From: Escherichia coli | GTDB lineage: Bacteria; Pseudomonadota; Gammaproteobacteria; Enterobacterales; Enterobacteriaceae | Direction: 5' to 3' (one strand) | DNA length: 64,000 nucleotides | Assembly: GCF_036507355.1 (NCBI RefSeq) | Contig: NZ_AP027877.1 | Shown: positions 29,600 through 40,894 of the stretch, piece after piece | How positions within the stretch are numbered: position 1 is the first letter of the stretch | Layout of the letters: each line of letters opens with the position of its first letter | Translations under genes and position numbers: made by a program | Notes under the pieces: generated by a model | Databases searched by the model: none | Told to the model about the DNA's origin: nothing | The model's input: only the letters and a program-made list of their open reading frames with translations

Positions 29600-31291
29600 A
29601 TGAAAACGCTGCTGATTATTGACGCTAATCTCGGTCAGGCACGCGCCTATATGGCGAAGACCCTGCTGGGCGCGGCGGCGCGAAAAGCAAAACTGGAAAT
29701 CATCGACAATCCGAACGACGCAGAAATGGCGATTGTTCTCGGTGATTCCATCCCGAATGACAGCGCGCTGAACGGTAAAAATGTCTGGCTGGGCGATATT
29801 TCCCGGGCAGTTGCGCACCCTGAGCTGTTCCTGAGTGAAGCCAAAGGCCATGCGAAACCTTACACTGCGCCGGTCGCTGCGACAGCACCGGTTGCCGCCA
29901 GCGGTCCGAAACGCGTAGTTGCGGTGACTGCTTGCCCGACTGGCGTAGCACACACCTTTATGGCGGCTGAAGCCATTGAAACCGAAGCGAAAAAACGTGG
30001 CTGGTGGGTGAAAGTTGAAACCCGTGGTTCTGTTGGTGCGGGTAATGCAATCACCCCCGAAGAAGTAGCCGCAGCGGATCTGGTGATTGTGGCGGCAGAT
30101 ATCGAAGTGGATCTGGCGAAATTTGCTGGTAAACCGATGTATCGTACCTCTACCGGTCTGGCGCTGAAGAAAACCGCGCAGGAACTGGATAAAGCGGTTG
30201 CTGAAGCAACGCCGTATGAACCGGCGGGCAAAGCTCAAACGGCGACCTCTGAAGGTAAGAAAGAGAGTGCAGGCGCATACCGTCACTTGCTGACGGGCGT
30301 CTCTTACATGCTGCCGATGGTCGTTGCAGGTGGTCTGTGTATCGCGCTTTCTTTTGCTTTTGGTATCGAAGCGTTTAAAGAGCCGGGTACGTTGGCAGCG
30401 GCGCTGATGCAGATTGGTGGTGGTTCAGCCTTTGCGCTGATGGTGCCGGTACTGGCAGGTTACATTGCCTTCTCCATTGCCGATCGTCCGGGTCTCACGC
30501 CGGGTCTGATTGGCGGTATGCTGGCGGTCAGCACCGGTTCTGGCTTCATTGGCGGTATTATTGCGGGCTTCCTGGCTGGTTACATTGCGAAGTTAATCAG
30601 TACGCAACTGAAACTGCCACAGAGTATGGAGGCGCTGAAACCGATCCTGATCATTCCGCTAATTTCCAGTCTGGTGGTCGGTCTGGCGATGATCTACCTG
30701 ATCGGTAAACCGGTTGCTGGCATTCTCGAAGGGTTGACTCACTGGCTGCAGACCATGGGGACTGCGAATGCGGTTCTGCTGGGGGCGATCCTCGGTGGCA
30801 TGATGTGTACTGACATGGGCGGTCCGGTAAATAAAGCAGCGTACGCATTCGGTGTGGGTCTGCTGAGTACTCAAACCTATGGCCCGATGGCGGCGATTAT
30901 GGCGGCAGGTATGGTGCCACCGCTGGCAATGGGTCTGGCAACAATGGTGGCGCGTCGCAAATTCGACAAAGCGCAGCAGGAAGGTGGCAAAGCCGCTCTG
31001 GTTCTTGGTCTGTGCTTTATTTCGGAAGGTGCAATTCCGTTTGCTGCTCGTGATCCGATGCGTGTGCTGCCGTGCTGTATCGTGGGTGGGGCGCTGACTG
31101 GCGCAATCTCAATGGCGATTGGTGCGAAACTGATGGCACCGCACGGTGGTCTGTTTGTTCTGCTGATCCCTGGCGCTATTACGCCGGTACTGGGTTACCT
31201 GGTAGCAATTATTGCCGGTACGCTGGTGGCGGGTTTGGCCTATGCCTTCCTGAAACGTCCGGAAGTGGACGCAGTAGCGAAAGCCGCGTAA
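29600..31291 (+). CDS. fruA: Fructose PTS IIB'BC component FruA (563 aa)
   Basis: Duplicated IIB domains followed by IIC membrane domain; CPTGVAHT phosphorylation-site motif. Confidence 0.93.
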   Translation: MKTLLIIDANLGQARAYMAKTLLGAAARKAKLEIIDNPNDAEMAIVLGDSIPNDSALNGKNVWLGDISRAVAHPELFLSEAKGHAKPYTAPVAATAPVAASGPKRVVAVTACPTGVAHTFMAAEAIETEAKKRGWWVKVETRGSVGAGNAITPEEVAAADLVIVAADIEVDLAKFAGKPMYRTSTGLALKKTAQELDKAVAEATPYEPAGKAQTATSEGKKESAGAYRHLLTGVSYMLPMVVAGGLCIALSFAFGIEAFKEPGTLAAALMQIGGGSAFALMVPVLAGYIAFSIADRPGLTPGLIGGMLAVSTGSGFIGGIIAGFLAGYIAKLISTQLKLPQSMEALKPILIIPLISSLVVGLAMIYLIGKPVAGILEGLTHWLQTMGTANAVLLGAILGGMMCTDMGGPVNKAAYAFGVGLLSTQTYGPMAAIMAAGMVPPLAMGLATMVARRKFDKAQQEGGKAALVLGLCFISEGAIPFAARDPMRVLPCCIVGGALTGAISMAIGAKLMAPHGGLFVLLIPGAITPVLGYLVAIIAGTLVAGLAYAFLKRPEVDAVAKAA

Positions 31292-31445
31292 TAAAAGGTG
31301 TGTTACAGGGCAGAATTTTACTGCCCTGTATCATTGGATGAGCGCAAAGAGAATGACCGGTTTGTGAATGTAATTTTATGAATTTAAATGGTTTTATCTT
31401 TCAGTAGAAACCTGAAACGTTCATCAAACACTAAGGTTATTTCCT

Positions 31446-31476
31446 CAAGGGCAGATTCTTTTCTGCCCTTTTTTAG
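31446..31476 (+). terminator. Rho-independent terminator downstream of fruA
   Basis: aagggcagattcttttctgccctttttt: GC stem followed by a T-run. Confidence 0.7.
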
Positions 31477-31714
31477 TGTTCATGTTCTGTGCATCCCGTC
31501 ACAAATTCCTCGCTTTTGTAATTCTGGCATTTAATCGCATTTTGTGAGCCTGCTCAAATCTGCCCGCTTTGCCTCTCTGGCGGCAATTTACTTTACGTAA
31601 AACATGCATACTATGAGCACATGTTTAAATATGAACACATGTTTAAACTGTCTTTGCAGTATCTATATTCTTGTGGATTGACAGGGTTGGTAATTTTTTA
31701 CCAGAGGACGTGCT

Positions 31715-32656
31715 ATGCGCGAAAAGGATTATGTCGTAATTATAGGCTCGGCGAATATTGATGTCGCCGGATATTCACATGAATCATTAAATTATGCGGA
31801 TTCAAATCCAGGTAAAATAAAATTTACGCCTGGTGGGGTAGGGCGCAATATTGCACAAAACCTGGCGTTGCTGGGTAATAAAGCCTGGCTACTGAGCGCC
31901 GTAGGCAGTGATTTTTATGGCCAATCGCTGCTAACGCAAACCAATCAATCTGGCGTTTATGTCGATAAATGCCTGATTGTGCCGGGAGAAAATACGTCGA
32001 GCTATTTATCATTACTCGATAATACCGGTGAAATGCTGGTTGCTATAAATGACATGAATATTAGCAACGCTATTACAGCTGAATATCTCGCACAGCACCG
32101 TGAATTTATTCAGAGGGCAAAGGTCATTGTCGCGGACTGTAATATCAGTGAAGAGGCACTGGCATGGATTCTGGATAATGCTGCCAACGTACCCGTATTT
32201 GTCGATCCGGTTTCAGCGTGGAAATGTGTCAAAGTGCGCGACCGTCTAAATCAGATCCACACTCTGAAGCCAAACCGCCTTGAAGCGGAAACACTGAGTG
32301 GGATTGCGCTGTCAGGGCGTGAAGATGTGGCAAAAGTTGCTGCCTGGTTCCATCAACATGGCCTGAACCGACTGGTATTGAGCATGGGCGGCGATGGCGT
32401 TTATTACAGCGATATCAGCGGTGAAAGTGGCTGGTCTGCGCCGATCAAAACCAATGTTATTAATGTTACCGGAGCGGGCGATGCCATGATGGCGGGACTT
32501 GCTTCGTGTTGGGTAGACGGAATGCCGTTTGCCGAATCTGTTCGTTTCGCACAGGGATGTTCGTCAATGGCGCTCTCCTGTGAATACACCAATAACCCCG
32601 ATTTATCGATTGCCAACGTTATATCGTTAGTGGAGAACGCAGAATGTCTGAATTAA
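31715..32656 (+). CDS. psuK: Pseudouridine kinase PsuK/YeiC, pfkB family (313 aa)
   Basis: pfkB sugar kinase with GGVGRNIA and GAGDAMMAG motifs; first gene of psuKGT. Confidence 0.9.
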   Translation: MREKDYVVIIGSANIDVAGYSHESLNYADSNPGKIKFTPGGVGRNIAQNLALLGNKAWLLSAVGSDFYGQSLLTQTNQSGVYVDKCLIVPGENTSSYLSLLDNTGEMLVAINDMNISNAITAEYLAQHREFIQRAKVIVADCNISEEALAWILDNAANVPVFVDPVSAWKCVKVRDRLNQIHTLKPNRLEAETLSGIALSGREDVAKVAAWFHQHGLNRLVLSMGGDGVYYSDISGESGWSAPIKTNVINVTGAGDAMMAGLASCWVDGMPFAESVRFAQGCSSMALSCEYTNNPDLSIANVISLVENAECLN

Positions 32657-33582
32657 AAATTTCCCCTGAATTATTACAAATTTCCCCGGAAGTGCAGGAC
32701 GCTTTAAAAAACAAAAAACCGGTTGTGGCGCTGGAATCGACCATTATTTCTCACGGGATGCCGTTCCCACAAAATGCCCAGACCGCAATTGAAGTTGAAG
32801 AAACTATTCGTAAACAGGGCGCAGTACCTGCCACTATCGCCATTATTGGTGGCGTGATGAAAGTGGGTTTAAGCAAAGATGAAATTGAATTACTGGGTCG
32901 TGAAGGGCATAACGTGACCAAAGTTAGTCGTCGCGATTTACCTTTTGTTGTTGCCGCCGGAAAAAATGGCGCAACCACTGTGGCTTCAACGATGATTATT
33001 GCGGCGCTTGCCGGAATTAAAGTATTTGCCACCGGGGGAATTGGTGGTGTTCATCGCGGGGCGGAACATACCTTCGATATTTCTGCCGATTTGCAAGAAC
33101 TGGCAAATACTAATGTCACCGTTGTTTGTGCCGGGGCGAAATCTATTCTCGATTTAGGATTAACCACTGAGTATTTAGAAACCTTCGGTGTGCCGTTAAT
33201 TGGCTATCAGACTAAAGCGCTGCCTGCGTTTTTCTGCCGCACCAGCCCGTTTGACGTCAGCATTCGTCTCGACAGCGCCAGCGAAATTGCCCGTGCAATG
33301 GCGGTGAAATGGCAAAGCGGGCTGAACGGTGGCCTCGTGGTAGCGAACCCGATCCCGGAACAGTTTGCTATGCCGGAACACACTATCAATGCGGCGATCG
33401 ATCAGGCGGTAGCTGAAGCTGAAGCGCAGGGTGTTATTGGTAAAGAAAGTACGCCATTCCTGCTGGCGCGCGTTGCTGAGCTGACCGGCGGTGACAGCCT
33501 GAAATTCAACATCCAGCTGGTGTTCAACAACGCCATTCTGGCGAGCGAAATTGCCAAAGAATATCAGCGTCTCGCGGGTTAA
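32644..33582 (+). CDS. psuG: Pseudouridine-5'-phosphate glycosidase PsuG/YeiN (312 aa)
   Basis: Indigoidine-synthase-A-like ORF; 13-nt overlap with psuK. Confidence 0.9.
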   Translation: MSELKISPELLQISPEVQDALKNKKPVVALESTIISHGMPFPQNAQTAIEVEETIRKQGAVPATIAIIGGVMKVGLSKDEIELLGREGHNVTKVSRRDLPFVVAAGKNGATTVASTMIIAALAGIKVFATGGIGGVHRGAEHTFDISADLQELANTNVTVVCAGAKSILDLGLTTEYLETFGVPLIGYQTKALPAFFCRTSPFDVSIRLDSASEIARAMAVKWQSGLNGGLVVANPIPEQFAMPEHTINAAIDQAVAEAEAQGVIGKESTPFLLARVAELTGGDSLKFNIQLVFNNAILASEIAKEYQRLAG

Positions 33583-33675
33583 TTTCTGACGGGCAGAAAG
33601 CCGTCGCCCGTACTGATCATACATACCGAAACCTGGCGCTGACGCCGGGTTTACTGGCATGAAGGGAAAATCATT

Positions 33676-34926
33676 ATGGATATAATGAGAAGTGTTGTGG
33701 GGATGGTGGTGTTACTGGCAATAGCATTTCTGTTGTCGGTAAATAAAAAGAGCATCAGTTTGCGCACGGTTGGAGCCGCACTGCTGCTGCAAATCGCTAT
33801 TGGTGGCATCATGCTCTATTTTCCGCCGGGAAAATGGGCAGTAGAACAGGCGGCATTAGGCGTTCATAAAGTGATGTCTTACAGTGATGCCGGTAGCGCC
33901 TTCATTTTTGGTTCGCTGGTTGGGCCGAAAATGGATGTCCTCTTTGACGGTGCGGGTTTTATCTTCGCCTTTCGCGTACTTCCGGCGATTATCTTCGTCA
34001 CTGCGCTCATTAGTCTGCTGTACTACATTGGCGTGATGGGGCTGCTGATTCGCATCCTTGGCAGCATTTTCCAGAAAGCCCTCAACATCAGCAAAATCGA
34101 ATCTTTTGTCGCAGTCACCACTATTTTCCTCGGGCAAAATGAGATCCCGGCGATCGTTAAACCGTTTATCGATCGCATGAATCGAAACGAGTTGTTTACC
34201 GCAATTTGTAGCGGGATGGCGTCCATTGCTGGTTCGATGATGATTGGTTATGCCGGAATGGGCGTACCAATTGACTACCTGTTAGCGGCATCGCTGATGG
34301 CGATCCCCGGCGGTATTTTGTTTGCACGAATTCTTAGTCCAGCAACCGAGCTTTCGCAGGTCACGTTTGAAAATCTGTCGTTCAGCGAAACGCCGCCAAA
34401 AAGCTTTATCGAAGCAGCGGCGAGCGGTGCGATGACCGGGCTGAAAATCGCCGCCGGTGTGGCGACGGTGGTCATGGCGTTTGTCGCAATTATTGCGCTG
34501 ATTAATGGCATTATTGGCGGAATTGGCGGCTGGTTTGGTTTTGCCAATGCCTCTCTGGAAAGTATTTTTGGCTATGTGCTGGCACCGCTGGCGTGGATCA
34601 TGGGTGTGGACTGGAGTGATGCCAACCTTGCGGGTAGCCTGATTGGGCAGAAACTGGCGATTAACGAATTCGTCGCTTACCTGAGTTTCTCCCCATACCT
34701 GCAAACGGGCGGCACGCTGGAAGTGAAAACCATTGCGATTATCTCCTTTGCGCTTTGTGGTTTTGCTAACTTTGGTTCTATCGGTGTTGTCGTTGGGGCA
34801 TTTTCGGCTATTTCGCCAAAACGTGCTCCGGAAATCGCCCAGCTTGGTTTACGGGCGCTGGCAGCAGCAACGCTTTCCAACCTGATGAGCGCGACCATTG
34901 CCGGGTTCTTTATTGGTTTAGCTTGA
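33676..34926 (+). CDS. psuT: NupC-family nucleoside transporter PsuT/YeiM (416 aa)
   Basis: Concentrative nucleoside transporter fold; close paralog of the nupX product in this window. Confidence 0.9.
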   Translation: MDIMRSVVGMVVLLAIAFLLSVNKKSISLRTVGAALLLQIAIGGIMLYFPPGKWAVEQAALGVHKVMSYSDAGSAFIFGSLVGPKMDVLFDGAGFIFAFRVLPAIIFVTALISLLYYIGVMGLLIRILGSIFQKALNISKIESFVAVTTIFLGQNEIPAIVKPFIDRMNRNELFTAICSGMASIAGSMMIGYAGMGVPIDYLLAASLMAIPGGILFARILSPATELSQVTFENLSFSETPPKSFIEAAASGAMTGLKIAAGVATVVMAFVAIIALINGIIGGIGGWFGFANASLESIFGYVLAPLAWIMGVDWSDANLAGSLIGQKLAINEFVAYLSFSPYLQTGGTLEVKTIAIISFALCGFANFGSIGVVVGAFSAISPKRAPEIAQLGLRALAAATLSNLMSATIAGFFIGLA

Positions 34927-34993
34927 GTTTCATTGCCGGATGTACTCGCTTATTAAGCGTTGCATCCGGCAATCGCGCTATTGCAAATAATTT

Positions 34994-35653
34994 TTACTGC
35001 ATCATCCCGGAGAATTTATTCTCCGGGTCCATCTCCAGCGCCAGTCCTGACAACTGCTTTCTGTTTTTAATGAGATATCCTTTCTTGCTTTTAATTAATA
35101 AACCGTCGTGAATGAATTGCGCGAGAACATATAAAAGATGTCGATAAGAAACGCCTAAATACTCTGCCGCTTGCGTATGCTTTTCGTGATAAAGATCACC
35201 TTCTTGTGAGAGTAATATAAATGCTGCCAGGCGATTCACTAACGGAAATGATTGATTCTGAGTTAAAGAAACAATATTACGATAATTTTTATGACTTAAG
35301 GTGACGCAAAGTTTTCGTAAAAATAGGGTGTCGTTTAATAACAGCGGACGGTAATGTTTCATAGGGAGCGCAAGGCACCAACACTCTTCAATCGCCTGTA
35401 CTGCACGTGGTTCATGGTCTTTATCGATTAACTCAATCTCGCCAATAAAACAGGGGGCGGCAAAGAAATCGATCAGCGACACGCAACCATTAGCTAGCGT
35501 GGCGTAAAGCCTGGCGCGGCCTCGCGTCAGGTAAAACAGCCAGGACGGCTGTTGCCCTTCCTGCACAATGTAGTCACGCGCTAAAAAATGAAACAGCCGC
35601 GTATCGGCTGAAACATCCGTTAAAAAGCAATCCTTAAACGCGGATTCACTCAT
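34994..35653 (-). CDS. yeiL: Crp/Fnr-family transcriptional regulator YeiL (219 aa)
   Basis: cNMP-binding-like N-terminal domain and C-terminal HTH; start trimmed to MSESAFKD. Confidence 0.85.
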
Positions 35654-35821
35654 CAATTGCTGCTTAAGATCATTATTGTGGATTTCTTTCACGATGTTTA
35701 TCCGCTATGAGATTTCTCATATTTAGCATACGTACGCTGTTGTTAAGATTCAATCATCGGCCCGGTCGAATTTTCTTTGCTGTAGAAAAAATAACGCAAC
35801 TGGAAACAGAGGAAATAAACA

Positions 35822-36763
35822 ATGGAAAAGAGAAAAATTATTCTGGATTGTGATCCGGGTCATGATGATGCTATTGCAATGATGATGGCAGCGAAACATC
35901 CGGCAATAGATTTATTAGGCATCACTATTGTAGCGGGTAATCAGACGCTTGATAAAACATTAATTAATGGCCTGAATGTTTGCCAGAAACTGGAGATTAA
36001 TGTTCCGGTTTATGCGGGGATGCCGCAACCCATTATGCGTCAACAAATCGTTGCCGATAATATTCACGGTGAAACCGGACTGGATGGCCCGGTATTCGAG
36101 CCGCTGACCCGCCAGGCAGAAAGTACCCACGCGGTGAAATACATCATTGATACCCTGATGGCAAGCGATGGCGATATCACTCTGGTGCCGGTTGGTCCGT
36201 TGTCAAATATCGCGGTGGCAATGCGTATGCAATCCGCAATCCTGCCCAAAATCCGTGAAATTGTGCTAATGGGCGGCGCTTACGGTACAGGCAACTTCAC
36301 GCCATCTGCCGAGTTCAACATCTTTGCTGACCCGGAAGCCGCACGCGTGGTGTTCACCTCCGGCGTTCCATTAGTGATGATGGGCCTCGATCTTACCAAC
36401 CAGACCGTTTGCACCCCGGACGTAATTGTTCGGATGGAAAGGGCAGGCGGCCCTGCCGGAGAGCTATTCAGCGACATCATGAACTTCACTCTCAAAACGC
36501 AGTTCGAAAACTACGGCCTGGCTGGCGGCCCGGTGCACGACGCCACCTGCATCGGTTATCTGATTAACCCTGATGGCATTAAAACCCAGGAGATGTACGT
36601 CGAAGTGGACGTCAACAGTGGCCCTTGCTATGGGCGTACCGTCTGCGACGAGCTGGGCGTTCTTGGCAAGCCCGCTAATACCAAAGTCGGCATCACTATT
36701 GATACCGACTGGTTCTGGGGCTTAGTCGAAGAGTGCGTGCGCGGCTACATCAAAACCCATTAA
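35822..36763 (+). CDS. rihB: Pyrimidine-specific ribonucleoside hydrolase RihB/YeiK (313 aa)
   Basis: Nucleoside hydrolase N-terminal Asp cluster [11 protein letters not shown]. Confidence 0.92.
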
Positions 36764-36777
36764 GTGTTGATAACAAG

Positions 36778-36815
36778 CCGGGTCAGTATCGCAAAATGCA
36801 GGCCCGGCTATTTCT
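36778..36815 (+). terminator. Candidate rho-independent terminator downstream of rihB
   Basis: gccgggtcagtatcgcaaaatgcaggcccggc followed by tatttctg; long loop and weak U-tract. Confidence 0.45.
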
Positions 36816-36973
36816 GAGGGGCAGAAAGCCGTCGCCCAATATGACATGAAGAGATAATAACTATGGATGTCATGAGAAGTGTTCTGGGAATGGTGGTATT
36901 GCTGACGATTGCGTTTTTGGTGATGCTGCCAACTTACTGATTTAGTGTATGATGGTGTTTTTGAGGTGCTCCA

Positions 36974-37249
36974 GTGGCTTCTGTTTCTATCAGCTGTCCC
37001 TCCTGTTCAGCTACTGACGGGGTGGTGCGTAACGGCAAAAGCACCGCCGGACATCAGCGCTATCTCTGCTCTCACTGCCGTAAAACATGGCAACTGCAGT
37101 TCACTTACACCGCTTCTCAACCCGGTACGCACCAGAAAATCATTGATATGGCCATGAATGGCGTTGGATGCCGGGCAACAGCCCGCATTATGGGCGTTGG
37201 CCTCAACACGATTTTACGTCACTTAAAAAACTCAGGCCGCAGTCGGTAA
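36974..37249 (+). CDS. insA: IS1 transposition inhibitor InsA
   Basis: 91-aa ORF identical to the insA at 1926-2201. Confidence 0.9.
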
Positions 37250-37671
37250 CCTCGCGCATACAGCCGGGCAGTGACGTCATCGTCTGCGCGGAAATGGACG
37301 AACAGTGGGGCTATGTCGGGGCTAAATCGCGCCAGCGCTGGCTGTTTTACGCGTATGACAGGCTCCGGAAGACGGTTGTTGCGCACGTATTCGGTGAACG
37401 CACGATGGCGACGCTGGGGCGTCTTATGAGCCTGCTGTCACCCTTTGACGTGGTGATATGGATGACGGATGGCTGGCCGCTGTATGAATCCCGCCTGAAG
37501 GGAAAGCTGCACGTAATCAGCAAGCGATATACGCAGCGAATTGAGCGGCATAACCTGAATCTGAGGCAGCACCTGGCACGGCTGGGACGGAAGTCGCTGT
37601 CGTTCTCAAAATCGGTGGAGCTGCATGACAAAGTCATCGGGCATTATCTGAACATAAAACACTATCAATAA
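37168..37671 (+). CDS. insB: IS1 InsB reading frame (InsAB' transposase by frameshift)
   Basis: 167-aa ORF identical to the insB at 1504-2007. Confidence 0.9.
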
Positions 37672-38945
37672 GTTGGAGTCATTACCTGCGTTTTTACTGT
37701 CAGTAAACAAGAAGAAGATCAGCCTGCGTACCGTTGGCGCGGCGTTAGTGTTACAGGTTGTGATTGGCGGGATTATGCTTTGGTTACCGCCAGGGCGTTG
37801 GGTCGCTGAAAAAGTCGCTTTTGGCGTGCATAAAGTGATGGCGTACAGCGATGCAGGTAGCGCATTTATCTTCGGTTCGCTGGTCGGGCCGAAAATGGAC
37901 ACGCTGTTTGATGGCGCAGGATTTATCTTTGGTTTCAGGGTGTTACCGGCAATTATCTTCGTCACCGCGCTGGTGAGTATTCTCTATTACATCGGTGTGA
38001 TGGGGATCTTAATTCGCATTCTCGGCGGTATATTCCAGAAAGCATTAAATATCAGCAAGATCGAGTCATTCGTCGCGGTCACTACCATTTTCCTCGGGCA
38101 AAACGAAATTCCGGCGATCGTCAAACCCTTTATCGATCGTCTGAATCGCAATGAATTATTTACAGCGATTTGTAGTGGCATGGCCTCGATTGCTGGTTCG
38201 ACAATGATTGGTTACGCCGCACTGGGCGTGCCTGTGGAATATTTGCTGGCGGCATCGTTAATGGCGATCCCAGGCGGGATCTTGTTTGCCCGCCTGCTAA
38301 GCCCGGCTATGGAATCTTCGCAGGTTTCTTTTAATAACCTCTCTTTCACCGAAACACCGCCAAAAAGCATTATTGAAGCTGCCGCGACAGAGGCAATGAC
38401 CGGGCTGAAAATCGCCGCAGGTGTGGCGACAGTAGTGATGGCATTTGTCGCCATCATTGCGTTAATTAACGGTATTATCGGCGGCGTTGGCGGCTGGTTT
38501 GGTTTTGAACATGCCTCGCTGGAATCCATTTTAGGTTACCTGCTGGCCCCACTGGCGTGGGTGATGGGTGTTGACTGGAGTGATGCGAATCTTGCCGGGA
38601 GTTTGATTGGTCAGAAACTGGCAATAAATGAATTTGTCGCTTATCTCAATTTCTCACCCTATCTGCAAACGGCTGACAAGCTGGATGCTAAAACCGTGGC
38701 GATTATTTCCTTCGCGTTGTGCGGTTTCGCTAACTTTGGTTCTATCGGGGTGGTGGTGGGGGCGTTTTCTGCGGTTGCGCCACACCGTGCGCCGGAAATC
38801 GCCCAACTTGGTTTACGCGCGCTGGCGGCGGCGACACTTTCTAATCTGATGAGTGCCACCATTGCCGGGTTCTTTATTGGTTTAGCGTAGTGTGCGATTT
38901 ATGAGCCGGATAATATGCGGTCAAGCGTCGAATCCGGCAACATTG

Positions 38946-40034
38946 TTACACCATTGGCATTAATGAAAGCGCGTTATCGGCAGACAAGGTAGGGTTATTT
39001 AAGCTGCCGCTGGCGCGTGAAATTGCCGCGCAGGCCATCGCAAAACGGGCGCTGTCACGGAAATTGTTTCCTTCCAGAAAGCTATATACCAGGCCCGCCA
39101 TAAAACCATCGTCAGCACCAAAACTGTCTACTGTCGTATGCGCTGGTGCGGTCAGCAAAAATTGTTCTCCATCCTTTTCGCTGCAATAAACTGACTCATC
39201 GGGCAAATAAACAAACAGTTGCTGAACACCTTGCTGATGCAACGCATTCACTGCAGCATTACGGTCAGCATCGCTGGTGATCGCCTGTCCCCATAAAATT
39301 TCCAGCTCCGGTAAAGTGGGTTTCAGGGTGTGAATATGCGCCAGCCAGTGTTTGATTTTGCCCGCTTTGAATTCTGAAACGGTATCGACAAACACCGGGA
39401 TCTCATCAGCGAGGGTAAAGACCCATTCCAGCGCCTCGGCTGTCAGGTTGCAATCAGCCAGTACCACGCCCGCATGACGAAGTAAATCGCGCGACCCGTT
39501 CAGTAGTTGCGGTGTCAACTGTTCCAGCAGATGGGTATCGTTAATCGCCAGCACGGTTTGATCGTCTCGATTGGCAATTGCCAGATACGTCGATGTGCTT
39601 TGACCATGCAAACGAACGCAGCCGGAGACATTCACGCCGGCACGGCGCGTTTCTTCCAGGAGCATTTCGCCATAAAAGTCATCGCCAATCACTGAAAGCA
39701 AATGGACGTCGCGGCCTAACAGCGCCAGATTGTGGGCGATATTGCGTCCAACGCCGCCTGCCGAGCAATGAATTGTACCGGGATGAGAAGCCGATTGCGG
39801 GTAACGGATATCCGCCATCCCGCGAATATCCATATTGATTGTCCCCACCACTACGCAGTATTCCTGCTCGGTGAGAATGTAACCTTTGCCTTTAATCCGG
39901 CCTTTGCGCATTAAATCCATAATATGCGCCGCAACGCGCGAACGGCTGATTTGCAGCATGTCCGCAATTTCGTTCTGCTGAATCAGCGGGTTACGCCGTA
40001 AAATTGCAAGGATCTCCTTTTCCCGGTTATTCAT
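38946..40034 (-). CDS. yeiI: HTH-domain / pfkB-family sugar kinase fusion protein YeiI (362 aa)
   Basis: N-terminal about 55 aa resemble a winged-helix DNA-binding domain (EILAILRRNPLIQQNEIADMLQISRSRVAAHIMDL); the remainder is a PsuK-like kinase (GGVGRNIAHNLALLG). Confidence 0.85.
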   Translation of the reverse strand: MNNREKEILAILRRNPLIQQNEIADMLQISRSRVAAHIMDLMRKGRIKGKGYILTEQEYCVVVGTINMDIRGMADIRYPQSASHPGTIHCSAGGVGRNIAHNLALLGRDVHLLSVIGDDFYGEMLLEETRRAGVNVSGCVRLHGQSTSTYLAIANRDDQTVLAINDTHLLEQLTPQLLNGSRDLLRHAGVVLADCNLTAEALEWVFTLADEIPVFVDTVSEFKAGKIKHWLAHIHTLKPTLPELEILWGQAITSDADRNAAVNALHQQGVQQLFVYLPDESVYCSEKDGEQFLLTAPAHTTVDSFGADDGFMAGLVYSFLEGNNFRDSARFAMACAAISRASGSLNNPTLSADNALSLMPMV

Positions 40035-40036
40035 CT

Positions 40037-40894
40037 TCAGGCTACCGCTTTTTCAGTTTGTTGCGCTTTCAGCCAGGCGATCTCTTCTGCCCAGATATCC
40101 GGGTTGATGGTTTCGAGGATCAGCGGAATGCCGTCGAAACGGTCGTCCTGCATGATCCAGCGGAACGCATCATGACCGATATTGCCTTCACCGAGGCTAT
40201 GATGGCGGTCAACGCGGCTGCCAAAGGTGCTTTTCGCATCGTTAAGGTGCATCCCGCGCAGATACTTAAAGCCGACAATACGGGCAAAATCAGCGAACGT
40301 TTTCTCGCATTCGGCTGGAGTACGCAAATCATACCCGGCAGCGAAAGCATGGCAGGTATCAATGCAGACGCCGACACGGGATTTATCTTCCACGCCGTCG
40401 ATAATCGCCGCGAGATGTTCGAATTTAAACCCTAAGTTACTGCCCTGACCGGCGGTGTTTTCAATCACCGCGGTCACACCTTGAGTTTTATCCAGCGCAA
40501 TGTTGATGGATTCGGCAATACGCGCAAGGCAATCCTCTTCTGAAATCTGCATCAGATGGCTGCCAGGGTGGAAGTTGAGCAAAGAAAGCCCCAGCTGTTC
40601 GCAACGCTGCATTTCATCTATAAAGGCATCGCGCGATTTTTCCAGAGCTTCAGTGACCGGATGTCCGAGGTTAATCAGATAGCTGTCGTGGGGAAGAATT
40701 TGCGCCGATGTGTAGTGATATTTTTCACAGGCGGCTTTGAATTCATCGATGGTTTGCGTCGTGAGCGGTGCGGCACGCCACTGACGTTGGTTTTTGGTGA
40801 ACAAGGCAAACGCGGTTGCGTCGATTTCGGCGGCGCGAATTGCGGCATTTGCCAGACCGCCAGCAGCACTAACGTGCGCTCCAATGTATTTCAT
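40037..40894 (-). CDS. nfo: Endonuclease IV (285 aa)
   Basis: [39 protein letters not shown]... AP-endonuclease family 2. Confidence 0.93.

Follow-up and report, generated by a model that had tools for sequence, protein, structure and literature searches.

The Escherichia coli DNA considered here is a window of 64 kb from contig NZ_AP027877.1 (assembly GCF_036507355.1), of which positions 31715-40034 comprise seven genes: psuK, psuG, psuT, yeiL, rihB, nupX and yeiI. This cluster is the known E. coli/Shigella salvage locus for pseudouridine and pyrimidine nucleosides. Gene order and orientation are those of E. coli K-12 (yeiI-nupX-rihB-yeiL-psuT-psuG-psuK), protein identities reach 96-100%, and the region is collinear by megablast with E. 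coli chromosomes in which RefSeq annotates the same genes; it differs from K-12 in that the present nupX carries an IS1 element. The fruBKA genes lie upstream of the cluster, and nfo, yeiH, yeiE and lysP downstream. A preliminary description of this DNA had placed the same seven genes, in agreement with the coordinates, Pfam and NCBIfam assignments and RefSeq annotation, and had read them as two mirror-image modules left around yeiL by a single ancient segmental duplication. The comparative analysis reported here points instead to separate duplications of the transporter and kinase genes, and suggests that YeiI, the product of one kinase-like copy, may regulate pseudouridine catabolism.

According to the passages of PMC9061257 and PMC9247573 that cite Preumont 2008, PsuK phosphorylates pseudouridine and PsuG splits the product, yielding uracil plus ribose-5-phosphate. 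PsuT is regarded as the pseudouridine transporter by operon association alone and took up neither uridine, cytidine nor xanthosine when assayed, while NupX mediates low-efficiency uptake of uridine and cytidine (PMC11241209). The name ribosylpyrimidine nucleosidase for RihB is taken here from annotation (NCBIfam, RefSeq). PsuT and NupX each contain the Nucleos_tra2_N, Gate and Nucleos_tra2_C domains of the CNT family, and YeiL combines a cNMP-binding-like domain with a C-terminal Crp-type helix-turn-helix (HTH), as in the Crp/Fnr family. On the strand that it shares with nfo, yeiI has its start codon 2 nt past the nfo stop codon (40032-40039), so yeiI is probably co-transcribed with this endonuclease IV gene and not with any nucleoside gene. 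It is, moreover, convergent to nupX, and therefore stands outside any rihB-nupX operon.

Table 1. Genes and other features of the nucleoside salvage locus, in window coordinates unless another locus is named (CDS, coding sequence; ORF, open reading frame; wHTH, winged HTH; REP, repetitive extragenic palindromic).
Feature	Position	Strand	Remarks
CRP-like site upstream of psuK	31543-31558	+	TGTGA-N6-TCAAA, read from sequence
Putative psuK promoter	31587-31614	+	-35 TTTACT (31587-31592), 16-nt spacer, -10 TACTAT (31609-31614)
Predicted tandem operator	31615-31646	+	GAGCACATGTTTAA (31615-31628) and GAACACATGTTTAA (31633-31646), starts 18 bp apart
psuK	31715-32656	+	pseudouridine kinase, PfkB without HTH; Pfam; NCBIfam PRK09850 equivalog, 716 bits (cut-off 540)
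psuG	32644-33582	+	pseudouridine-5'-phosphate glycosidase; Pfam PF04227 (Indigoidine_A), E = 7e-132; RefSeq annotation
P1 hairpin, psuT leader	33590-33610	+	CGGGC-AGAAAGCCGTC-GCCCG, directly past the psuG stop
P2 GC-rich hairpin	33632-33652	+	CCTGGCG-CTGA-CGCCGGG then TTT, between psuG and psuT
psuT	33676-34926	+	CNT-family (NupC-type) transporter; TIGR00804, 514 bits (cut-off 442)
Putative psuT/nupX 3'-end exchange regions	34903-34975 and 38867-38945		counterparts in E. coli HCP17S3_I4 (locus L001): 4898-5040 and 8865-9000
yeiL	34994-35692	-	Crp/Fnr-family regulator, 232-residue ORF; Pfam cNMP_binding (PF00027) and HTH_Crp_2 (PF13545); NF007707, 415 bits (cut-off 180)
Perfect 16-bp palindrome	35706-35721		TATGAGATTTCTCATA (TATGA-GATTTC-TCATA; TATGA-N6-TCATA, CRP-like spacing), yeiL/rihB divergent promoter region
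rihB	35822-36763	+	ribosylpyrimidine nucleosidase; Pfam PF01156 (IU_nuc_hydro); NF007417, 722 bits (cut-off 459)
P1 hairpin copy, nupX leader	36818-36838	+	core 19/19 identical to the psuT copy; 96% over 28 nt
nupX, interrupted	36863-38890	+	CNT-family transporter; TIGR00804, 500 bits (cut-off 442)
nupX 5' fragment	36863-36918	+	CDS nt 1-56
IS1	36919-37686	+	768 bp, insA/insB ORFs; target duplicated over 9 bp, TGCGTTTTT, at 36910-36918 and 37687-37695
nupX 3' part	37696-38890	+	CDS nt 57-1251; 99% identical to E. coli NupX
yeiI	38946-40034	-	wHTH (residues 1-52) and PfkB kinase-like domain; Pfam HTH_24 and PfkB; NF007416, 812 (cut-off 561)

A sensitive self-comparison of positions 31200-40200 yields one DNA repeat only, psuT against nupX, which is direct, about 1.35 kb long and 78.6% identical at the nucleotide level across the CDS, together with a 28-nt leader at 96%. 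The transporters are indeed closely alike, but not "near-identical at the N-terminus" as had been proposed: their 88% amino acid identity is spread over all 416 residues, and third-codon identity in E. coli is 52%, near saturation. PsuK and YeiI share 39% of their residues, and the kinase pair and the transporter pair are both true paralogs, as the preliminary description held. The GGVGRNIA motif on which it relied is present in both kinases, yet its residues G41, V42 and N45 are invariant in all 113 PsuK-family kinases examined, and the motif is thus uninformative on kinship or recency. Pairing of the glycosidase with the hydrolase fails, PsuG (Indigoidine_A) and RihB (IU_nuc_hydro) having unrelated folds, different Pfam families and no significant similarity (best BLASTP E = 5.6). 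Neither are the modules mirror images, as psuKGT and rihB-nupX both lie on the + strand, the psuT/nupX repeat is direct, and only the kinase genes are oppositely oriented.

The two paralogous pairs also stand differently towards their relatives outside the Enterobacteriaceae. All Enterobacteriaceae PsuT and NupX proteins form one clade against outgroup PsuT (100% bootstrap), outgroup PsuT being about 73% identical to both PsuT and NupX. For the kinase domain, the identity between PsuK and YeiI is 40%, lower than that of either PsuK (58%) or YeiI (48%) with the kinases of other Enterobacterales. In neighbour-joining (NJ) analyses, the PsuK sequences form a clade (97% bootstrap) and so do those of YeiI (100%), and a sister grouping of the two was recovered in 0 of 300 bootstraps. 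The Serratia wHTH-kinase scores 439 bits on the PsuK model and 424 bits on the YeiI model of NCBIfam and passes neither; such near-equal scores are as expected of an ortholog that predates the split. YeiI itself falls below the PsuK equivalog PRK09850 (254 against a cut-off of 540). One block duplication therefore does not fit these opposite outgroup relations, and a single segmental event is likewise contradicted by the non-homologous middle genes, the single repeat and the separate distribution of the genes described below. Altogether, the genes, the shared motif and the IS1 insertion of the preliminary description are confirmed, while its mirror arrangement, its glycosidase/hydrolase pairing and its N-terminal emphasis are not; phylogeny and synteny uphold it in that each pair belongs to related families, yet the histories of the pairs differ. 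The two look-alike halves are best explained by two separate single-gene duplications rather than by one mirrored block, an explanation which, with the YeiI step set out below included, we hold with good confidence.

The distribution of the genes was followed in 80 loci with 10-kb flanks, one genome per species, drawn from an alignment of YeiI relatives and onto which ten reference proteins were mapped. In all 45 outgroup loci (Morganella, Serratia, Yersinia, Hafnia, Photorhabdus, Xenorhabdus, Gilliamella, Pasteurellaceae, Chromobacteriaceae and Shewanella), a single kinase gene matches YeiI from residue 1, wHTH included, and is directly followed by psuG on the same strand; psuT comes next in about half of them. 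Among the informative Enterobacteriaceae loci, 27 of 35 have the arrangement yeiH-nfo-yeiI> <psuT-psuG-psuK-fruA with nothing between yeiI and psuT, in Citrobacter, Enterobacter, Klebsiella, Kluyvera, Buttiauxella, Leclercia, Pseudocitrobacter and E. albertii, among others. Taken with the outgroup operons, this adjacency indicates that yeiI belongs with the psu genes and that rihB-nupX-yeiL is an intercalated cassette. In the sampled loci, nupX-rihB-yeiL lies between yeiI and psuT in four lineages only, namely Escherichia (not E. albertii), C. amalonaticus S646, Phytobacter diazotrophicus and Entomohabitans; it is missing from P. ursingii and from three further loci that bear the label C. amalonaticus or Citrobacter sp.

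The patchiness of the cassette reflects loss or old exchange. A recent transfer was considered and rejected, the synonymous-site identity of rihB among cassette-bearing genera (51-55%) being equal to the value for the core genes that flank the cassette, which must accordingly be roughly as old as the genera themselves. It is possible, if somewhat doubtful, that horizontal transfer, together with homologous recombination in the yeiI and psuT flanks, carried the cassette among a few Enterobacteriaceae, rather than the cassette being ancestral and repeatedly lost. Its presence varies even within species and genera, as between C. amalonaticus S646 and other strains or between P. diazotrophicus and P. 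ursingii, and in E. albertii the divergence from E. coli is much greater for yeiI, psuK and psuT than for nfo and yeiH, suggesting that alleles were replaced at this locus. The rihB divergence nevertheless implies that any such transfer is about as old as the genera, and the direct psuT/nupX repeats that bracket rihB-yeiL offer a simple route to deletion, one that would be easily repeated. In the E. albertii locus itself (L006, 6618-11000), identity to E. coli is 84% for YeiI and 88% for PsuK at the amino acid level and 87% for psuT at the nucleotide level, against 98% at the amino acid level for Nfo and YeiH, and the cassette is absent; this segment looks like one replaced by a foreign allele rather than simply deleted.

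The transporter duplication would have been an event of its own, in which a unit of about 1.35 kb, comprising the P1 leader and psuT, gave rise to nupX; together with rihB, a non-homologous nucleoside hydrolase, and yeiL, nupX forms an old, patchily retained three-gene cassette. Protein NJ trees do not resolve the monophyly of the nupX-like genes of the four lineages (24-35% support). Within-genome third-codon identity between psuT and nupX reaches 73% (C. amalonaticus S646), 66% (P. diazotrophicus) and 64% (Entomohabitans), compared with 46-60% for transporters between genera, a pattern that indicates probable gene conversion in these three lineages and suggests that conversion accounts for the lack of resolution. 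An exchange of smaller extent is seen in E. coli: the last ~24-35 nt of the psuT CDS and the downstream REP-like sequence of the present genome match nupX of strain HCP17S3_I4, and vice versa, suggesting that the psuT and nupX 3' ends have been ectopically exchanged.

On the kinase side, the ancestral unit would have been an operon running from a wHTH-kinase gene to psuG, and on to psuT in many taxa, preceded by tandem operators, a promoter and a CRP-like site. Enterobacteriaceae have two kinase paralogs, of which PsuK would have remained the operon's enzyme after loss of its wHTH, and YeiI would have kept the wHTH; yeiI is convergent and lies just beyond psuT, behind nfo. It is unlikely, in our estimation, that YeiI is instead a xenolog, that is, an already-diverged wHTH-kinase acquired horizontally from a non-enterobacterial lineage and placed beside the psu operon. 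Such an origin would agree with the absence of a PsuK+YeiI clade from all 300 bootstraps and with a weak grouping of YeiI with Chromobacteriaceae kinases (39%). By raw identity, however, YeiI is closest to Enterobacterales kinases (48%, and 55% over the full length for Morganella) rather than to those of Chromobacteriaceae (44%), and its long branch is of the kind on which NJ is prone to artefacts. Furthermore, yeiI occupies an identical position in every Enterobacteriaceae locus, and its recognition helix matches the operator-linked wHTH of the Enterobacterales outgroups.

The kinase-like domain of YeiI is assigned to PfkB (PF00294, E = 4e-68) and retains the N-terminal GG...N motif of that fold as GGVGRN, its N-terminus matches HTH_24 (E = 1e-10), and in its AlphaFold model (mean predicted local distance difference test score, pLDDT, 87.6) three helices and a wing make up the wHTH, after which comes a PfkB domain that superimposes on E. 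coli PsuK with template-modelling (TM) scores of 0.94-0.96. The catalytic motifs have changed. The Asn of NXXE is replaced by Thr (N187T, giving TxxE) in 34 of 35 YeiI sequences and by Ala in the remaining one, and GAGD has become GADD (G255D) in 35/35, which keeps the catalytic Asp and replaces the anion-hole Gly; T252F and M114T are each fixed as well (35/35). NXXE and GAGD are kept in 33/33 PsuK and 45/45 outgroup kinases. In contrast, the 11 pseudouridine-contact residues defined from the PsuK crystal structures of PMC9247573 (N14, D16, S30', G41, V42, N45, Y97, N143, V166, S167 and K170) are invariant in the 33 PsuK, 35 YeiI and 45 outgroup kinases, which for YeiI denotes a conserved pocket and not activity. 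The wHTH is the most conserved part of YeiI, with 93% identity within Enterobacteriaceae against 79% for the kinase-like domain, and 68.5% against 47% in comparison with the outgroups, which is consistent with selection on the DNA-binding domain.

Fused wHTH-PfkB proteins are widespread. Matches at E<=1e-30 amount to 744 clusters at 50% identity; about 110 of the 150 best clusters are fused, most of these keep NXXE and GAGD, and the pseudouridine-contact signature is present in 111 of ~146 full-length sequences. In some 15-20 distant representatives, GAGD and/or NXXE has degenerated independently (SxxE occurring with GAAS, GTSG, GASS or GIDN, for instance), from which it appears that catalysis may have been lost more than once in the family. 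Sequence and fold searches found no solved structure that combines a wHTH with PfkB.

The operator with which the wHTH would interact is predicted upstream of psuK. Tandem RAACA-NN-TGTTY pseudo-palindromes occur upstream of Enterobacteriaceae psuK and, in all outgroup families, immediately upstream of the gene for the wHTH-kinase. A strict search with AACANNTGTT-N8-14-AACANNTGT gave no match, as the first copy in the present genome starts with GAGCA, and a position weight matrix (PWM) was used instead. With the PWM, 72 of 77 loci show a tandem pair upstream of their psu kinase gene, its members lying 18 bp apart in 61 and 19 bp apart in 11, all of the latter in Chromobacteriaceae or Shewanella, and it is the only tandem match in each ~21-kb locus. 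Within the 64-kb window, the two best single matches are at 31615 and 31633 and form the only tandem pair, against a mean of 0.04 in dinucleotide shuffles. The sites are directly 3' of the promoter-like element TTTACT-N16-TACTAT, whose hexamers are conserved across loci (8/12 match to consensus, under the threshold of a generic scan), and the CRP-like site lies about 70 bp upstream, TGTGA-N6-TCAnA or TCACA being conserved at the corresponding place in the promoters of Enterobacteriaceae and outgroups. In the outgroups, the kinase's own wHTH is the only DNA-binding domain encoded near the operator; Enterobacteriaceae PsuK is devoid of an HTH, and the operator is retained all the same.

These observations lead to a model, slightly favoured on balance, in which YeiI is the missing regulator of pseudouridine catabolism. 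YeiI would be a kinase-derived and probably catalytically impaired sensor of pseudouridine or its phosphate whose wHTH acts on the tandem operator, and would represent the regulator half of a split bifunctional kinase, the fused form being a BirA-like enzyme-repressor. Dimers of YeiI would sit on both operators across the psuK transcription start, thereby repressing psuKGT, and would leave once the kinase-like pocket binds pseudouridine or its phosphate, while CRP would add catabolite control at the same promoter. YeiI is listed as uncharacterised in PMC9061257 and PMC12506659 and as a hypothetical transcription factor in PMC6055005, and the literature searched contains neither a function or operator assigned to YeiI nor a characterised wHTH-PfkB regulator. 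In a table of the review PMC12506659 that cites Preumont 2008, a psuK mutant is given as unable to use pseudouridine, and this serves there as grounds for not calling YeiI a pseudouridine kinase; if this is so, YeiI does not replace PsuK.

One might suppose that YeiI is rather an active kinase for another modified nucleoside, its wHTH being incidental or regulating genes besides psuKGT. The PfkB fold is confidently predicted, the catalytic Asp309 is kept, M114T falls in the base-clamping pocket and could alter specificity (PMC9247573), and purifying selection acts on the kinase-like domain (77-79% identity within Enterobacteriaceae). Against this, the NXXE Asn and the GAGD anion-hole Gly are replaced in all YeiI and in none of the 33 PsuK or 45 outgroup kinases, 11 of 11 pseudouridine contacts are unchanged, the strongest conservation falls on the wHTH, and the ancestral operator still precedes an HTH-less psuK with no other tandem site in the loci; we consider such a role improbable. 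As for a single ancient mirror-image duplication of a kinase-glycosidase-transporter module around yeiL, with rihB later replacing a psuG-like gene, the two genuine paralog pairs and the position of the kinases at the outer ends of the region do little to rescue it when the transporters are direct repeats of a unit of just ~1.35 kb, PsuG and RihB are unrelated, the two pairs stand oppositely to the outgroups, yeiI sits beside psuT without rihB or nupX in most informative Enterobacteriaceae loci, and yeiI abuts nfo convergently to nupX, and it can be set aside as very improbable.

Several points nevertheless weigh against the explanation by two duplications and a kinase-derived regulator. The synteny scan was centred on YeiI relatives, so that genomes with psuKGT and without yeiI would be missed, and the upstream regions scored with the operator PWM were those that had also served to train it. 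The trees are NJ trees with simple distance correction only, their support being recomputed as bipartitions, and the kinase tree is poorly resolved, with YeiI on a long branch and weakly drawn to Chromobacteriaceae; YeiI may be either a duplicate made in situ that then evolved faster or an acquired second copy. With G255D and N187T, catalysis might be altered and not abolished. Finally, gene conversion blurs both the age of the transporter duplication and whether it had one origin or more.

The cassette includes the regulator gene yeiL. The perfect palindrome between the divergent yeiL and rihB genes (Table 1) is invariant across all four cassette-bearing lineages and has no further exact copy in the window, including upstream of psuK, nupX and yeiI. 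It is a candidate YeiL site, at which this regulator probably acts.

The leaders of the two transporter genes share the P1 hairpin, whose core is unchanged although the psuT and nupX coding sequences are about 78% identical. Two of the five pairs of the P1 stem show compensatory changes. The closing pair covaries, being C-G in psuT leaders and U-A in nupX leaders, and compensatory changes are found in Leclercia and E. sichuanensis. A dispersed repeat was ruled out, since an E. coli genome has P1 only twice, in its psuT and nupX leaders. An Rfam scan of 31200-40200 at E<=10 returned sub-threshold chance matches only, none of them at these leaders. P2 is kept in the psuG-psuT spacers of Enterobacteriaceae and is absent from the E. 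coli nupX leader through a 41-nt deletion, and outgroup psuG-psuT spacers hold different hairpins at the same place; by its form, P2 resembles a weak terminator or attenuator. RNAalifold recovered the P1 stem alone, P2 being visible by eye and misaligned.

The preliminary description was right that IS1 has broken one transporter arm. The insertion falls in codon 19 of nupX, the element has the length, insA/insB genes and 9-bp target duplication of IS1 together with its terminal inverted repeats (GGTGATGCTGCCAACTTACTGAT and GGTAATGACTCCAACTTATTGAT), and RefSeq annotates it as IS1A family. In silico excision joins the two nupX fragments into an ORF of 416 residues. nupX is thus inactivated in the present genome, a case of routine genome decay; loss of NupX uptake would leave RihB without a dedicated transporter. 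The event resembles IS1 gene inactivation in Shigella and IS-rich E. coli, the shared traits being an element of 768 bp, its terminal inverted repeats, the 9-bp duplication and a non-essential transport gene as target, but differs in its site, the nupX-IS1 junction being found in 0 of 5,426 complete E. coli genomes. A second IS1 at 1489-2256 is 100% identical to the nupX copy and in opposite orientation; having two identical copies in 64 kb, the genome would seem to be IS1-rich (Shigella-like), with a potential for inversion between the copies.

Lesions of other kinds affect the same cluster elsewhere. In E. coli HCP17S3_I4 (L001, 4992-6467), yeiL is split by IS1, and in Escherichia sp. MOD1-EC7003 (L004, 13564-15589), psuT and psuK are absent, as is the psuK operator. 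From these differing lesions in other Escherichia, the nucleoside cluster appears prone to decay. In Citrobacter koseri (L036, 10001-13900), the full-length YeiI query match is broken and scores much lower, and psuT is undetected at >=50% coverage between yeiI and psuG; this locus may have decayed.

The proposed function of YeiI has parallels in well-known systems. Among the ROK family, repressors such as NagC and Mlc are related to sugar kinases; as proposed for YeiI, a sugar-kinase fold serves them as ligand sensor of a repressor with an N-terminal wHTH, and enzyme and regulator paralogs coexist. The folds differ, ROK/ASKHA for NagC and Mlc against PfkB/ribokinase for YeiI, and the DNA binding and catalytic loss of YeiI are predictions from sequence. 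BirA, NadR and the Bacillus subtilis PurR share with YeiI a wHTH fused to an enzyme or enzyme-like domain, and their operator binding is controlled by ligand occupancy, as that of YeiI would be, though their enzyme folds and effectors are different. B. subtilis PurR keeps a phosphoribosyltransferase-fold ligand pocket without catalysis, as is proposed here for the pseudouridine pocket of YeiI. BirA is truly bifunctional, and it is the outgroup wHTH-PsuK with intact motifs that resembles it (BirA is reviewed in PMC5640590).

The gene cluster and its paralogies are already known, as is the biochemistry of PsuK, PsuG, NupX and RihB, while the YeiI hypothesis is new in the literature searched, in which no description of the regulation of pseudouridine recycling in E. 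coli was found. The history of the locus is corrected to two independent single-gene duplications and a patchy three-gene cassette, and the comparison yields a testable set consisting of a candidate regulator, a 32-bp predicted operator and four diagnostic substitutions. A possible use lies in the engineering of pseudouridine-producing strains, which are now built around psuG and psuT. Pseudouridine being an abundant RNA modification, the YeiI hypothesis addresses how E. coli regulates its recycling, and, if it is true, the fused wHTH-kinase would be a BirA-like enzyme-repressor for a modified-nucleoside pathway.

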